From a virus (taxonomy: Duplodnaviria; Heunggongvirae; Uroviricota; Caudoviricetes), in the IMG/VR virus record IMGVR_UViG_3300037504_000201, positions 64,001 through 77,750 of that record: a stretch of 13,750 nucleotides of DNA; one strand, written 5' to 3'. Position 1 is the stretch's first letter. Every line of letters begins with the position of its first letter. The notes beneath the pieces are model-generated. The model was not told the DNA's origin and searched no databases. It saw nothing but the letters and a program-made list of their open reading frames with translations. Positions 1,313 to 5,831 of this stretch are shown piece by piece. The translations under genes and the position numbers were made by a program.

Positions 1313-1407
1313 AAGCAAAGGTGTGGACGGCGCTTAGCCTTGTGCTCGGTGGCGCGGGGTTGCTTTACGTGCTGACCCGCAACGCCGTAGCGATACTGGC
1401 GAGCTAG
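1309..1407 (+). CDS. Small hydrophobic peptide, 32 aa, with one predicted transmembrane helix
   Basis: Below the track cutoff. ATGA overlap with the upstream stop and RBS GGGAGG at 1298-1303. MKAKVWTALSLVLGGAGLLYVLTRNAVAILAS ends just before a terminator. Confidence 0.7.
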   Translation: MKAKVWTALSLVLGGAGLLYVLTRNAVAILAS

Positions 1408-1412
1408 CAAGG

Positions 1413-1443
1413 AGGCCCCACCCGCCGAGGTGGGGCCTTTTTT
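1413..1443 (+). terminator. Rho-independent terminator
   Basis: AGGCCCCACC-cgccga-GGTGGGGCCT followed by a T run. Confidence 0.9.
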
Positions 1444-1494
1444 ATGTCAGTTATACACGGTTCCGTGTTAGTTAGCCGACTTAGTTTTAGCTCC

Positions 1495-1541
1495 TAAAAC
1501 ATTATATATATATTTTAAGGGAATCAATTATGTCAAATTGA
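1495..1541. repeat. 47-bp AT-rich direct repeat, copy 1 (copy 2 at 3261-3307)
   Basis: TAAAACATTATATATATATTTTAAGGGAATCAATTATGTCAAATTGA, 42/47 identical to copy 2. Confidence 0.9.
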
Positions 1542-1552
1542 ATTCTAGCGTG

Positions 1553-1587
1553 GAATAAAAAAGCCCCGCCGGGGTGGGCGGGGCTGG
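1553..1587 (-). terminator. Rho-independent terminator of the leftward cassette; duplicated at 2391-2425
   Basis: AGCCCCGCC (1562-1570) pairs with GGCGGGGCT (1577-1585). A6 at 1557-1562 is the U tract on the minus strand. 33/35 identical to 2391-2425. Confidence 0.85.
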
Positions 1588-1604
1588 GGGGGGCGATTGG
1601 CGGG

Positions 1605-1916
1605 CTAATTGCGGGACTCGACAACCTCCATTCGGTCGTTATCGATCCACAGCCGTTCGACCGATGCGCCGGACTCTGGCGGCGCCGACGTCTCCACAAG
1701 CGACTTGGGCCATCCGTCCTGTACGACGGTGGCAGTCCACTTGCCGTCCACACGCACTGTGTCCCATTGGCCTGGGCGATCCACAGCTCTCACCTCCTCT
1801 CTATACAATCTATCCACGGCCACCGCGATGACCGTGGAGATCGAATCATACCCCATCGCCACAAGCTCTACGGCTTGGGCGTGGGTTTTATCGGGCACCC
1901 TAACCGATTTACTCAC
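1605..1916 (-). CDS. Ribbon-helix-helix (CopG/Arc/MetJ-like) domain protein, 103 aa
   Basis: GTG at 1916 overlaps the upstream stop (GTGAGTAA) and follows AAGGTG. The N-terminus SKSVRVPDKTHAQAVELVAMGYDSISTVIAVAVDRLY has the beta-alpha-alpha RHH pattern. The track start is 1931. Confidence 0.65.
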   Translation of the reverse strand: MSKSVRVPDKTHAQAVELVAMGYDSISTVIAVAVDRLYREEVRAVDRPGQWDTVRVDGKWTATVVQDGWPKSLVETSAPPESGASVERLWIDNDRMEVVESRN

Positions 1917-2289
1917 TGGGCACCTTGCCATTCAATACCGACACGACCGCAGACACCAGCGCAGATTTGGAGTCGAAACTATAAAAAATCTCGGCCCCGG
2001 CATCGAAGCGCTCTCCCGTGATCACGCAGCGCCCGTCATAGCGCGACTCCATTTGCCTGCCGTTGGTCGCCAGGTCGTAGACTACCATAATAGTGTCTGC
2101 GATGTGCGCGCCAGGCTCGCCGGCTTCAGCGGCCGCCTTGGCGTAGCTGAATGCCCACGCCGGGGCGTCCTCGCCAGCGATGAGGACGCTGACAGTTTCT
2201 TCATCGCGCTCGGTTACCAACGCCTTGCGAACGGCCATTCCCCGTCCGAACTCCCGCTTGCGAATCTCGATCTTGATTTTGTGTGCCAT
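1909..2289 (-). CDS. Hypothetical protein, 126 aa, with a degenerate zinc-ribbon-like motif near the C-terminus
   Basis: ATG after RBS AGGAG and directly downstream of the promoter at 2332-2360. Contains MESRYDGRCVITGERFDAGAEIFY. Confidence 0.8.
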   Translation of the reverse strand: MAHKIKIEIRKREFGRGMAVRKALVTERDEETVSVLIAGEDAPAWAFSYAKAAAEAGEPGAHIADTIMVVYDLATNGRQMESRYDGRCVITGERFDAGAEIFYSFDSKSALVSAVVSVLNGKVPSE

Positions 2290-2331
2290 TTGTTTATCTC
2301 CTATTTGGTGGTATTTGTCTCAACTGGTTAT

Positions 2332-2394
2332 ATCGTACCACACAGCGTGGTATATGTCAAGGAATTGCTCGGAGTTTTTAAGGTTAGGTAGAAT
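2332..2394 (-). promoter_or_regulatory. Leftward sigma70 promoter module B with an operator-like inverted repeat
   Basis: TTGACA (2360-2355), 17 nt, TACGAT (2337-2332), with a TG extension. TACCAC-N5-GTGGTA lies across the spacer. Bases 2354-2394 are 38/41 identical to 3196-3236. Confidence 0.8.
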
Positions 2395-2425
2395 AAAAAA
2401 GCCCCGCCGGGGATGGCGGGGCTGG
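2391..2425 (-). terminator. Rho-independent terminator, near-identical to 1553-1587
   Basis: AGCCCCGCC (2400-2408) pairs with GGCGGGGCT (2415-2423). A6 at 2395-2400. Confidence 0.85.
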
Positions 2426-2438
2426 CGAGGGTGCGGGA

Positions 2439-2768
2439 TTATCTGTACTTTTCATCCGGCTCCAGAGCGGGTAACTTATCCCGATGAACAAGCCAAGAGT
2501 TCCCGACCTTCATCCCGGCGCCGAAACGCTCGTGGCGATTCTTGATAAGTGCCCGTGCGCGCCTGGGCGAAATGCCGAAATGGTCCGCAACATCCTGAAC
2601 TGTCATCAGTCCCATCAAGGCGTCGTGACGCCCGGCGATGAACGCCCGTTGTGCCACTTGTTCCAAAGCGTGGCGCACGCGACGATCAGATGCATGACCG
2701 GCGCCGTGTGGAAACATCATACTCATTGCGTTTTCGATTGCCCGATTGACTATGTCATTAGTTTTCAT
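2439..2768 (-). CDS. Helix-turn-helix protein (HTH_17/excisionase/MerR-like C-terminal domain), 109 aa
   Basis: C-terminal LMTVQDVADHFGISPRRARALIK...GMKVGNSWLV fits an HTH-plus-wing pattern. ATG at 2768 overlaps the end of the upstream gene; the track uses TTG at 2774. Confidence 0.75.
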   Translation of the reverse strand: MKTNDIVNRAIENAMSMMFPHGAGHASDRRVRHALEQVAQRAFIAGRHDALMGLMTVQDVADHFGISPRRARALIKNRHERFGAGMKVGNSWLVHRDKLPALEPDEKYR

Positions 2769-3129
2769 CGTCAAGGATATCCCGAACGCGGTCGGTCATC
2801 GGTAGGTCTTCTTCCTCGCAAACCAATGCGTCCCACACCTCGTTGTTAGCCTGATTACGTAGCGCCACCAGGTCGATCTCGACGTCGTGGGTGGGGTCCC
2901 ACATCCCGTGCTCATCGGTGTTTTCGCCATACACCTCACCCAGTACCTCGCTGGTGCTGGGTTGCCAGTAGATGGACGAGTCGCCTGCCTCAGCGCACAA
3001 TTCCTCAAAGCGCTCGGCGACCAGGTCGCCCAGCGCTTCCCCCTGCTCCGGGGTAATGTTGTCGCCCCAGTCGTCGTACAAAGCCGATATGCCCCAGCCT
3101 GAGCCGCGTGTAAAAACTGCCGTTGTCAT
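2758..3129 (-). CDS. Highly acidic hypothetical protein, 123 aa
   Basis: ATG at 3129 after RBS GGAGGAGG, first gene behind promoter A. By hand count it has 31 D/E, 5 R and no K. Confidence 0.85.
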   Translation of the reverse strand: MTTAVFTRGSGWGISALYDDWGDNITPEQGEALGDLVAERFEELCAEAGDSSIYWQPSTSEVLGEVYGENTDEHGMWDPTHDVEIDLVALRNQANNEVWDALVCEEEDLPMTDRVRDILDDEN

Positions 3130-3173
3130 TTGAATCCCTCCTCCTTCGTCTGAACGGTCAATCAACTAAATGT

Positions 3174-3236
3174 ACTATACCACAAGCGGTATAGCATGTC
3201 AAGTAATTGGTCGGAGTTTTTAAGGTTTGGTAGAAT
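3174..3236 (-). promoter_or_regulatory. Leftward sigma70 promoter module A with an operator-like inverted repeat
   Basis: TTGACA (3202-3197), 17 nt, TATAGT (3179-3174), with a TG extension. CTATACC-N6-GGTATAG overlaps the -10 and spacer. Confidence 0.8.
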
Positions 3237-3260
3237 TCAATGTGACTTAATTGATCGCAT

Positions 3261-3307
3261 TAAAACATATATTATATATTTTAAAGGAATCAATTATGTC
3301 AAATTGA
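3261..3307. repeat. 47-bp AT-rich direct repeat, copy 2
   Basis: TAAAACATATATTATATATTTTAAAGGAATCAATTATGTCAAATTGA, same orientation as 1495-1541. Confidence 0.9.
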
Positions 3308-3351
3308 TTGCTCTTGAATGCACTAAACGAGTGGGCAAGCTGGCATGCGCG

Positions 3352-3422
3352 TCTTGTTAACTCTTGTTAAGATTCTTAACAAGTTCTTGTTAACCCGACC
3401 TATTCTTGACAAGGCTTAACAA
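3352..3422. repeat. Cluster of five TTGTTAA/TTAACAA boxes
   Basis: Copies at 3352-3360, 3362-3370, 3375-3383 (inverted), 3385-3394 and 3415-3422 (inverted). Includes the perfect inverted repeat CTTGTTAAG-att-CTTAACAAG. Confidence 0.85.
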
Positions 3423-3534: not shown

Positions 3535-4021
3535 ACCGTGCGTGGGCGCAACTAAGCGCAAGGAAGCGGCACACGAATGCCGCCTCATCGCGTGTCGGCG
3601 CCAGCTCCATCAGCGCCGGCAGCACCTCGCGCGCGCATCGCTCCGCTTTGTCGTACCATCCCCCGCACCCGACATAGTACTCGTCCGCCCACGCGCGGAA
3701 GGCGCGCATGGCGCGATTGAACCAGGCCGCCCGACCAGCGATGAATACAATTGTCTCGGGATCCGGCGCGGCGCGTGGCGTGTAGCGGACACGCACGAAC
3801 CGCCCGCACTGCTCGACCGGCTCGCATTCCTTCAGTGGCGCCCGTATCTGGCGCGCCACGAGCACCGCCACAACGTCGCCGGGCACCTCGACGCGCTCCA
3901 GTGGGTAATAGTCGGGCTGCTCGTACCACATCGCGCTCAGCTCCGCGCGTGTCGCCACCGGTTGACCGACCACGACCGGCGCGTCGAACAGTGTCTTTGT
4001 CGTCACAACTTGCCTATCCAT
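3533..4021 (-). CDS. Hypothetical protein, ~162 aa
   Basis: RBS GGAGGT at 4033-4028. The GTG/ATG start (4024 or 4021) overlaps the upstream stop, and the gene is the last of the leftward operon before the terminator. Confidence 0.8.
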   Translation of the reverse strand: MDRQVVTTKTLFDAPVVVGQPVATRAELSAMWYEQPDYYPLERVEVPGDVVAVLVARQIRAPLKECEPVEQCGRFVRVRYTPRAAPDPETIVFIAGRAAWFNRAMRAFRAWADEYYVGCGGWYDKAERCAREVLPALMELAPTRDEAAFVCRFLALSCAHAR

Positions 4022-4239
4022 CACTTTACCTCCAATGCCCAGTAGAGCCTACCGGGCCGATATTGCGCCACCGTCAACGTCACCGTCTGGCACGCCAAAA
4101 ACGCCAGCACCGCCAGCGCGGCGATACGCAGAATACCCCGCGCCCCACGCGCCGGACCGTCTACCACGACACGATGGGCGGTGATCACGGCGGCGAGAAT
4201 GATAATCAACGCACGAACTGATTTTAGCACCTCTAACAT
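4021..4239 (-). CDS. Small membrane protein, 72 aa, with two hydrophobic segments
   Basis: ATG at 4239 after RBS AGGAGGAG. Hydrophobic stretches are VRALIIILAAVITA and ILRIAALAVLAFLACQTVTLTV. The track start at 4299 has no RBS. Confidence 0.75.
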   Translation of the reverse strand: MLEVLKSVRALIIILAAVITAHRVVVDGPARGARGILRIAALAVLAFLACQTVTLTVAQYRPGRLYWALEVK

Positions 4240-4249
4240 CTGTCTCCTC

Positions 4250-4435
4250 CTATAATATGGTGGCGATGAACAAAAGAGCGATGAGCGCGGCGGACGCAAT
4301 CCCCACGACGAGCCAGATCAGTTCAATCAGCGGCGTAGTCTCCGGGCCTTGCAGCTCAAAGACCTCCTTATAGCCGTCTGAGTACTCGTATATTTTGCGC
4401 ACGAGTCGCCGCTTGCCTTGTTGCTCTTCGTCCAT
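4250..4435 (-). CDS. Small protein, 61 aa, with a C-terminal transmembrane helix
   Basis: Ends LIELIWLVVGIASAALIALLFIATIL. A purine-rich AAAGAAAGGG stretch precedes the ATG, and the gene fits the operon spacing. Confidence 0.75.
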   Translation of the reverse strand: MDEEQQGKRRLVRKIYEYSDGYKEVFELQGPETTPLIELIWLVVGIASAALIALLFIATIL

Positions 4436-4511: not shown

Positions 4512-5831
4512 CTATCTCGCCGGCCCTAGCACTTCCCGGACGCGCTCGTTGGCCTTCCCGCCGGTGTAGCCACGCACGGCCAACTCAATCTGCCCGCGAT
4601 TAAGGCCCATCTCGTCAAGGCGCCGGATCATCGCCGCCTCTTCGTCCTCGTCTTGCTCGTCGCCGCCTGGCAAGGCGTCATTGATCGGCCCGCCGGTGCG
4701 CAAGATGCGCTCAAACTCGTCCCGCCCGACCCACGGCGCCTGTAGCTCGCGCTGTTCCTGGCCGACGAGCTGCACGAACATTCGGCCCGGTGCCTTGATC
4801 TCGGCAGCGTCGCCCGAACCCAAGACAACGTGGCTGGACGACTTTGGCAACTTTAGCGCCGCGCGCGTCGAGAACTGATCGCGCACCTGCGGCGGCATCA
4901 CGCGGTAGCCCACGCTTTGCCCGGTGAGCACGACGTACACGCCATATTGGCGCGCCGTCTGTACGAGATCCCGCAGCGGTTCCCCAATTGCGCCGTCATT
5001 CAGCGCCGCAGTCCCTTCGTCCACCACCACGACCCAGGGGGGCACATCTTGTCCCGTCGCGCCGTTGTACTCGATGAGATTGGTCGCCTTGGGCGCGTTG
5101 GCTTCGTACTGGTCGCGCCGCCGACCAACCTCGGCCCGGCACGCGGCAAGCACCTGCGCCGCCGAACGCCCGTCGCGCGCCACGGGCCACAACAGTTTAT
5201 CCCACTCACGCGCCACGTTGAACTCTGAGCCGTAAGGATCAATCAGCGCCACCTCGACCGTCTCACGCGCCTGGGCAAGCTGGGTAAGCAGTGCCCGAAG
5301 GAACACGCTCTTTCCCCATCCGGAGGCCCCCACCGCCAGCACGTGCATCAGCTCGTGGAGCGGCGCGCTCACCGACTGCATGCCGCGCTCGGTGGGGTAA
5401 GCGCCGATGACCAGATTGTCAATCGTCGGGCGAGAGACGAGCTTGGACAGCGCCACTTGCTCCGGCCATCGCGGCGCCATCGCCTCGTCAACCGCTTGCT
5501 GGACGTTGGCGGGTAGCGCACGCCCACCGATCTGCTCTTGAATCATCGCCATCATTTGCAGCATCGGATTGAAAAAGCGCTGCTCCAGGTCGCGGTAGCT
5601 GTTGCCGGTTTCGAGGTCGAGGATAGCCTTGGTGCCGGGGTCGTAGGCGTAGCGGTCACCGATGACGCGCAAGCTCTCTGCGCGCATCTCTTGCTCGCGC
5701 CAGCGGTACGATTGCCGCACGTTAAGTAGGCGCGTGTAGCGCTCGAACGCGGCGTCGTATAGCTTGAATGCAACGGGGACGCTAAGCGCCCCCAGTCCCA
5801 GCCCGGCCCCCAAGATCGTCAGAACGTCCAT
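4512..5831 (-). CDS. FtsK/SpoIIIE-family ATPase (TraB/TcpA-like DNA translocase candidate) with an N-terminal membrane anchor
   Basis: Walker A HVLAVGASGWGKS, then VALIDPYGSEF, Walker B WVVVVDEG and the ARQYGVYVVLTGQ motif typical of FtsK/HerA-clade ATPases. Hydrophobic N-terminus; RBS GAGGGAG. Confidence 0.85.
   Translation of the reverse strand: MDVLTILGAGLGLGALSVPVAFKLYDAAFERYTRLLNVRQSYRWREQEMRAESLRVIGDRYAYDPGTKAILDLETGNSYRDLEQRFFNPMLQMMAMIQEQIGGRALPANVQQAVDEAMAPRWPEQVALSKLVSRPTIDNLVIGAYPTERGMQSVSAPLHELMHVLAVGASGWGKSVFLRALLTQLAQARETVEVALIDPYGSEFNVAREWDKLLWPVARDGRSAAQVLAACRAEVGRRRDQYEANAPKATNLIEYNGATGQDVPPWVVVVDEGTAALNDGAIGEPLRDLVQTARQYGVYVVLTGQSVGYRVMPPQVRDQFSTRAALKLPKSSSHVVLGSGDAAEIKAPGRMFVQLVGQEQRELQAPWVGRDEFERILRTGGPINDALPGGDEQDEDEEAAMIRRLDEMGLNRGQIELAVRGYTGGKANERVREVLGPAR

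Follow-up and report, generated by a model that had tools for sequence, protein, structure and literature searches.

Two tandem operons of an uncultivated tailed phage, probably early and self-repressing, resemble acr-aca units

The locus studied here raises the question of whether two small gene units of similar build, lying next to each other in a phage genome, are self-repressing early operons with exchangeable genes, and whether they resemble the operons in which anti-CRISPR (acr) genes are paired with aca regulator genes. The units occupy positions 1553–3236, on the minus strand, of a 13,750-nt stretch of the IMG/VR record IMGVR_UViG_3300037504_000201; this stretch, called the window below, comprises bases 64,001–77,750 of the record and forms its end. 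The record is linear, 77,750 bp long (GC content 57.7%), and 86% complete according to CheckV, and because its genes include those for a major head protein, a large terminase, and a helicase, its source is an uncultivated tailed phage. No close relative of the record was found in collections of isolate phages and plasmids, a DNA similarity search with window positions 1400–3400 against phages and plasmids gave no matches, and no paralogues of the proteins described below were found within the genome. We interpret the locus as two adjacent, independently transcribed early accessory-gene operons, each probably self-repressing, and put the probability of this interpretation at about 60%.

In each unit, a promoter containing a dyad is followed by a cargo gene (A1 or B1), a small DNA-binding gene (A2 or B2), and a terminator (Table 1). 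All the parts of the two tandem cassettes that had been proposed in an earlier, model-made reading of the DNA, referred to here as the sequence-only reading, were located on the minus strand, and its figures for the repeats were reproduced: the upstream promoter halves are identical at 38/41 positions (93%) and the terminators at 33/35 (94.3% over 35 nt). The two spacers contain distinct inverted repeats, as it had stated, both of them exact. Each of these dyads occurs only once in the 77.75-kb genome, in which other promoter classes share other dyads; the proposal that each regulator has its own operator is thus borne out as far as the DNA sequence can speak, in that each dyad is private. By a log-odds score of codon usage, for which 16 confident genes served as the training set, A1 reached 0.43, B1 0.33, B2 0.17–0.27, and A2 0.05, and all plus-strand alternatives were negative.

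Table 1. Positions of the predicted features of the two operons and of related elements. Coordinates refer to the window unless another sequence is named.
Feature	Position	Strand	Remarks
Promoter A	3202..3174	−	TTGACA, 17-nt spacer, TG-extended TATAGT; 11/12 consensus match
Promoter B	2360..2332	−	TTGACA, 17-nt spacer, TG-extended TACGAT
Dyad A, candidate A2 operator	3175..3194		Exact CTATACC-N6-GGTATAG
Dyad B, candidate B2 operator	2336..2352		Exact TACCAC-N5-GTGGTA
Cassette A UP-like module plus −35	3196..3236	−	Repeat of 2354–2394
Cassette B UP-like module plus −35	2354..2394	−	Abuts terminator A
A1, cargo	2758..3129	−	123 aa, acidic
A2, regulator	2439..2768	−	109 aa, basic; overlaps A1 stop by 11 nt
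Terminator A, intrinsic	2391..2423 (stem 2423..2400)	−	9-bp stem, 8 G-C pairs, then T-run
B1, cargo	1909..2289	−	126 aa; no detectable relatives
B2	1605..1916	−	103 aa from the probable GTG start at 1916; RHH plus KOW/SH3-like barrel (predicted); alternative ATG at 1931
Possible internal start at B2 domain junction	1782..1799	−	Internal Shine-Dalgarno sequence GAGGAGGTG (codons E-E-V) plus GTG; would give a ~59-aa barrel protein
Terminator B, intrinsic	1553..1585 (stem 1585..1562)	−	9-bp stem, 8 G-C pairs, then T-run
AT-rich ~50-nt repeat, upstream copy	3261..3312	−	Promoter-like TTGACA-18-TATATA; inverted pair with 3231–3283
AT-rich ~50-nt repeat, downstream copy	1495..1546	−	Found by repeat search
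ATTCTAGAAT-class promoters (exact or close variant in spacer)	781–809; L001 4876–4904; genome 2156, 3025
Protein X in relatives	L004 5229–5597; L005 4726–5106; L012 1237–1611; L015 1028–1387; L016 2792–3181; L017 2250–2618; L021 1372–1746

The strongest comparative evidence concerns what lies around the relatives of A2, and the identity of this protein is considered here before its neighborhoods. The sequence-only reading had called the small DNA-binding gene of cassette A a helix-turn-helix (HTH) gene, and A2 matched the Pfam family HTH_17 (PF12728) over residues 54–98 with 28.3 bits (E 2e-6), which is above the gathering cut-off of 27. A structural model of A2, built from 24 sequences and with a predicted local distance difference test (pLDDT) score of 72, has two N-terminal helices followed by a winged helix in the order strand-helix-helix-hairpin. 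A Foldseek search of the PDB with this model returned weak fold matches only (BldC, RacA, RdfS, Pukovnik Xis, and Tn916 Xis), and we regard A2 as a predicted winged HTH protein of the MerR/Xis type. There are 23 metagenomic homologues of A2, with 52–69% identity. We read the neighborhoods of twelve of them, together with locus L030, which came from a genome scan and belongs to a Dehalococcoidia metagenome-assembled genome (MAG), and locus L033 from IMG/VR. The contigs with recognizable genes are phage-like (terminase, portal, integrase, and amidase), and in nearly all cases the A2 homologue closes a short operon of genes on the same strand; exceptions are L018, where it is the opening gene, and L008–L011, where it has its own promoter.

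The core of promoter A is kept in 10 related loci, in which the A2-type operons start with it; this was the case wherever the homologue had approximately 50% identity or more and the DNA upstream could be read. The motif TTGACA-NN-CT[AG][TC][AG]CCG-N5-GGTATA[CG]T occurs once per locus in L004, L005/6, L012/13, L015–L018, L020, and L033, and L030 carries a near-variant of it. When 11 loci were aligned, the invariant columns clustered in a 29-nt core that includes seven positions of the spacer, and the bases of the left arm of dyad A were among the invariant ones; the upstream flanks were unconserved, and the proteins are approximately 60% identical. A sigma-70 promoter does not itself need those seven spacer positions. 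Furthermore, the 5′ untranslated regions of L004, L005, L012, L015–L018, L020, and L033 contain a box, (G/A)TACCGGATAGGGAATAGA, 6–25 nt past the −10 element. This box is a direct repeat of the half-site CTRTACCGRAT, approximately 32–33 nt downstream of the copy in the spacer, and the promoter in the window has no such second site. The direct half-site repeat of the relatives would suit the head-to-tail binding of a Xis/BldC-like protein. Scans of IMG/VR with A1, A2, or B2, used singly or as alignments, gave no matches, nor did tblastn searches of isolate phages with A2 and B2.

The genes that accompany the A2-type regulators differ from locus to locus. An all-vs-all comparison placed the genes directly upstream of the regulator in at least six unrelated families, with two very acidic proteins among them (isoelectric point, pI, 4.1), and the regulators of L017 and L018 are 100% identical, yet L018 has no upstream gene. 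Cargo that was invariant among the relatives would have spoken against exchangeable units; in this family it was found to be variable or absent. These comparisons show that, in the A2 family, the regulator and the promoter with its predicted operator dyad are conserved while the cargo varies, and the acr-aca-like layout described by the sequence-only reading is therefore seen in the relatives of cassette A as well. None of the proteins of the relatives' A2 operons matched Pfam or PHROGs. In L030, three copies of an intercistronic hairpin plus ribosome-binding site (GCCCGGCACCC...GCCGGGCAAGGAGATTGAAATG; positions 3660–3716, 4230–4267, and 4935–4967) lie ahead of consecutive genes in the A2-type operon. 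In the phage itself, A1 is strongly acidic (pI 4.05, with 31 D/E vs. 5 K/R residues). Neither A1 nor B1 matched a family in Pfam, PHROGs, NCBIfam, or PADLOC or a solved relative among the PDB sequences; in a word-seeded search of 5.8 billion proteins they matched themselves only, and the ESM Atlas contained no informative neighbor of either. The one homologue of A1, P0044, surfaced only through the search with B2 described next.

Cassette B ends in a gene that had been read as coding for a ribbon-helix-helix (RHH) regulator, and this holds for its N-terminal domain, to which a second domain is fused. The model of B2 (pLDDT 79) has an extended N-terminus and two helices followed by a five-stranded barrel. 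Residues 6–53 superpose on the RHH domain of ParD2 (Z 6.2, with a root-mean-square deviation of 1.7 Å over 48 residues), and residues 50–108 match the KOW domains of Spt5 (Z 8.0) and NusG (Z 7.9), a match that shows the fold only because such Z values are common for small barrels. A Foldseek search of the PDB with the B2 model gave weak matches only. We consider B2 to be, on the basis of its model, an RHH domain (open reading frame (ORF) residues 6–49) joined to a KOW/SH3-like beta-barrel (residues 50–108). An exhaustive HMMER search with B2 identified P0031, which is closely related (84% identical) and encoded on a 52-kb contig, and P0034 (locus L022), which is distant but homologous over its full length; the other matches covered only residues 7–48 or only residues 52–107. 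Because P0031 starts at the position corresponding to ORF residue 6, the GTG at 1916, rather than the ATG at 1931, is the most likely start codon of B2. Elsewhere, the RHH domain forms the N-terminus of proteins with many unrelated C-termini, and the barrel domain also occurs as free proteins of 56–92 aa. The promoters of RHH operons in relatives, read by eye, contain the dyads GTATACC-N5-GGTATAC, GTATAGC-N6-GCTATAC, and ATAGCA-N3-TGCTAT, which overlap the −10 element and differ in sequence.

The junction between the two domains of B2 has a further property. In the window and in loci L024, L026, and L029, GAGGAG codes for the conserved R-E-E with which the RHH domain ends, in the extended form GAGGAGGTG in the window and L029, and an in-frame ATG or GTG lies 4–6 nt past the GAGGAG in all four. 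The free homologues of the cargo parts, stand-alone barrels included, begin at this same junction point. Because an in-frame Shine-Dalgarno sequence and start codon lie at the junction and free homologues start there, the arrangement suggests that internal initiation may yield both a fusion protein and free cargo.

Three links connect the RHH regulators with the A2-type regulators. P0044 joins a B2-type RHH domain to a part homologous to A1 (65% identity across 119 aa, E 2e-50); L029 encodes an RHH domain followed by a part homologous to the acidic cargo of the A2-type operon in L005, with the alignment starting at residue 1 of that cargo; and in L030 the A2-type operon contains a B2-type barrel as a separate protein of 78 aa. 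Because of these links, sequence comparison shows that the two regulator families share one cargo pool, and this shared pool is the strongest support for the idea of interchangeable units. That idea, put forward in the sequence-only reading, was upheld in two respects, as the cargo is variable in the A2 family and moves between regulator types; as explained later, no relative with the same flanks was found.

These observations can be combined into one mechanism. On phage entry, the RNA polymerase of the host would fire each of the near-consensus promoters, and both units would thus be expressed early. The last gene of each operon would provide a small DNA-binding protein, the winged HTH protein A2 or B2 with its N-terminal RHH domain, which may bind the private dyad across the spacer and −10 element of its own promoter and shut the unit down, and the strong terminator would insulate each unit from its neighbor. 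A1, B1, and the barrel domain of B2 would be exchangeable cargo. By analogy with acr-aca loci, Aca14, and AcrIE10, the cargo most likely consists of host-takeover or anti-defence proteins, and we would give an anti-defence function specifically roughly one chance in three. A bolder proposal, which we consider doubtful, is that the HTH_17-type and modular RHH regulators mark a common exchangeable pool of >10 small proteins in a clade of uncultivated phages, possibly of Chloroflexota, that RHH ORFs with a built-in Shine-Dalgarno sequence yield both a repressor-cargo fusion and free cargo, and that such loci form an anti-defence class of a new kind. The Dehalococcoidia MAG mentioned above (L030) contains one A2 homologue, and the host assignment is weak because, when 401 genomes of the phylum of this MAG were scanned with the A2 profile, only the L030 genome matched.

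Several results weigh against the interpretation as self-repressing operons with variable cargo. In both dyads, the TRTG-extended −10 element itself forms the right arm, and only the left arm is free information; in simulated random spacers joined to the −10 hexamer, arms of ≥ 7 nt arose in 0.3% and arms of ≥ 6 nt in 1.5% of cases. The pattern TTGACA-NN-TACCAC-N5-GTGGTA with a good −10 element was also found in 16 unrelated, often AT-rich phage contigs of IMG/VR (L034–L049), none of which has a B2 homologue. These matches were dropped as evidence, as the TRTG-extended −10 element and chance explain them; the pattern there is probably a chance occurrence on top of such promoters, and a widespread operator would be a conceivable, if less probable, explanation of the same sequences. 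Cassette B and its dyad are without comparative support. In the A2 family, a distant homologue (L008–L011, approximately 50% identity) lacks the dyad and lies upstream of an integrase gene, and a basic protein of approximately 122 aa, protein X, is the first gene in six relatives, so that part of the cargo is not variable. Protein X is 65–78% identical among the relatives, has no Pfam or PHROG match, and is absent from this phage. Finally, neither the cargo nor the regulators matched a known Acr, Aca, or anti-defence family in Pfam, PHROGs, NCBIfam, PADLOC, or the PDB sequences, a set that includes no dedicated Acr library. Separately, two of the three IMG/VR matches to the A pattern (L031 and L032) were rejected: they carry CTGCGCC and have neither a dyad nor an A2 homologue.

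The repeats around the cassettes bear on whether the units are mobile. An AT-rich element of approximately 50 nt (CAATTTGACATAATTGATTCC...TAAAATATATA) brackets both cassettes and has at least 10 copies genome-wide, near 1.7, 8.3, 10.1, 19.5, 30.4, 47.2, 55.8, 59.0, and 62.6 kb of the genome, some of them as inverted pairs. A third copy of the UP-like module, at genome positions 58,952–58,917, precedes a promoter with a different spacer palindrome, ATTCTAGAAT, and extra copies of the terminator lie at 55.9 and 62.7 kb. The palindrome ATTCTAGAAT is exact in two promoters and present as a close variant in two more, and TACAC-N6-GTGTA occurs in about three; the ATTCTAGAAT promoters form a separate class that marks a putative shared regulon. 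The first gene behind the third UP-module promoter (L001 4381–4836, minus strand) encodes a 151-aa protein without a family match and is followed by a gene for a 79-aa zinc-ribbon-like protein. Because the AT-rich element, the UP-like module, and the terminator have these extra copies, the early region is assembled from a reused junction made of the three, and its promoter spacers hold differing dyads. Repeats of the promoter/stem-loop (PeSL) kind thus flank the genes, at the identities given above and with further copies in the genome. The sequence-only reading had proposed a search of related genomes for the promoter/terminator module; we found no relative with the UP and terminator flanks in the phage, plasmid, or IMG/VR collections, and hence none with other cargo inside them. 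Since no genome with the same flanks around other cargo was found, we infer PeSL-like shuffling through the repeated flanks only as a possibility.

The same repeats have a second explanation, namely that they are regulatory junctions copied and reused within this genome, that the units are not mobile, and that the tandem arose by an old duplication of the control regions. The recurrence of the same parts at 55.9, 59.0, and 62.6 kb beside unrelated operons and the lack of a relative with these flanks around different cargo both fit such an origin, whereas the tail of the terminator and the end of the AT-rich element share ATTCTACC at the junctions, which would allow recombination. We regard this explanation as a real possibility that falls short of being probable, and it disputes only the PeSL-like shuffling, being compatible with our interpretation of what the genes do.

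Two other explanations concern the genes themselves. The units could be toxin-antitoxin or addiction modules, in which B2 is an RHH antitoxin whose C-terminal domain neutralizes B1, with A2 and A1 as a second pair. The best fold match of the N-terminal domain of B2 is indeed the antitoxin ParD2, both units have two genes and are apparently autoregulated, with predicted dyad operators, and the actin-like partition protein and ParB-methylase encoded in the window, which also encodes an FtsK-like ATPase, suggest a plasmid-like lifestyle. However, A1 and B1 match no toxin family in Pfam, PHROGs, NCBIfam, or PADLOC, so that the recognizable toxin constantly paired with an antitoxin that characterizes type II systems was not found; moreover, a putative toxin gene placed first, with an antitoxin carrying an N-terminal RHH domain second, is an atypical order. 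Because the partner genes of the A2-type regulators are unrelated, or absent even at 100% regulator identity, this explanation is weakened, and the existence of the B2 barrel domain as a free protein of 56–92 aa also speaks against it; we consider it very unlikely. Alternatively, A2 could be a recombination directionality factor (excisionase) or a general lysis-lysogeny regulator with ordinary early genes as neighbors. HTH_17 has the excisionase/MerR fold, A2 weakly matches an excisionase PHROG (E 4e-4) and TIGR01764, its weak fold matches include RdfS, Pukovnik Xis, and Tn916 Xis, and among its relatives a homologue lies just upstream of an integrase gene in L008–L011 and another adjoins one in L017. 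An excisionase role is made less credible by the finding of no tyrosine integrase in the 77.75-kb record (86% complete by CheckV) and by the position of the conserved site, which lies inside the promoter of the operon itself and not at an attachment site; in addition, next to the integrase gene of L017 there is already another HTH_17 gene, for a 65-aa protein. We therefore judge this role to be improbable.

Two adjacent, probably self-repressing early operons thus remain our preferred interpretation, and the locus is useful mainly as a discovery anchor. If the regulators act like Aca proteins, searches could be anchored on the A2 family, on its promoter motif, and on the RHH domain; they would single out dozens of small phage proteins as candidate inhibitors of bacterial defences, in phage lineages with no known anti-defence gene, and the RHH fusions with an internal start would represent a compact coupling of repressor and cargo. 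If they do not act in this way, the locus would still be a clear example of privately autoregulated early operons.

Among known systems, the closest in layout are the acr-aca operons with HTH autorepressors of the Aca1/Aca2 type, in which a strong promoter with an inverted repeat is followed by small variable genes and, last, by a conserved DNA-binding gene, and in which one regulator family persists from mobile element to mobile element with changing genes upstream of it. Here, A2 and B2 are likewise the last genes of their operons, behind small upstream genes, as are the regulators in 12 related loci, and the comparison of neighboring genes revealed a conserved regulator family with varying partners; no known or validated anti-CRISPR was found among A1, B1, and the cargo of the relatives in Pfam, PHROGs, NCBIfam, PADLOC, or the PDB sequences. 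A2 differs in belonging to HTH_17 (MerR/Xis type) and in matching no PDB chain by sequence, and its relatives add the direct half-site repeat CTRTACCGRAT to the dyad. Searches of the PDB sequences with A2 and B2 matched no Aca chain, a result that covers only the Aca families with solved structures. Because A2 and B2 have no sequence match to the known systems, we file the locus as acr-aca-like; by analogy it may work like an acr-aca unit, without belonging to any of the named families of Aca or Acr proteins.

Cassette B can also be compared with AcrIE10, in which an N-terminal RHH domain is joined to an Acr domain; its gene comes second in the acrIE9.2-acrIE10 operon, and the protein binds to an inverted repeat within its own promoter (PMC13530269). 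B2 is similarly the second gene of two, has a predicted N-terminal RHH domain and a separate C-terminal domain, and lies in an operon with a promoter inverted repeat. The two share no sequence similarity: when the PDB sequences were searched by phmmer and with profiles at E values up to 10, no AcrIE10 chain was returned. B2 differs further in its C-terminal domain, a predicted KOW/SH3-like barrel that also occurs free, and in the in-frame Shine-Dalgarno sequence and start at the domain junction. Aca14 is an RHH-type Aca that represses candidate anti-defence operons via inverted repeats in their promoters (bioRxiv 10.64898/2026.07.27.740549); it resembles B2, as compared by description only, in combining an RHH regulator with a promoter inverted repeat, and it acts on two operons, whereas dyad B occurs only once in this genome. 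The PeSL units of phage T4 resemble the locus in that near-identical promoter-proximal and terminator sequences bracket short tandem early-gene units. Unlike PeSL units, each of the units here has its own regulator, and the repeats are specific to this genome, with no exchange between genomes seen. Archaeal viruses offer a precedent for finding anti-defence genes by a promoter motif: there, small early genes that are unrelated to one another, together with Aca-like regulators, share a strong conserved motif of this kind (PMC11065993). In the present phage and its relatives, by contrast, the promoters are of the bacterial sigma-70 type, and the motif goes with a single regulator family instead of with every early gene.

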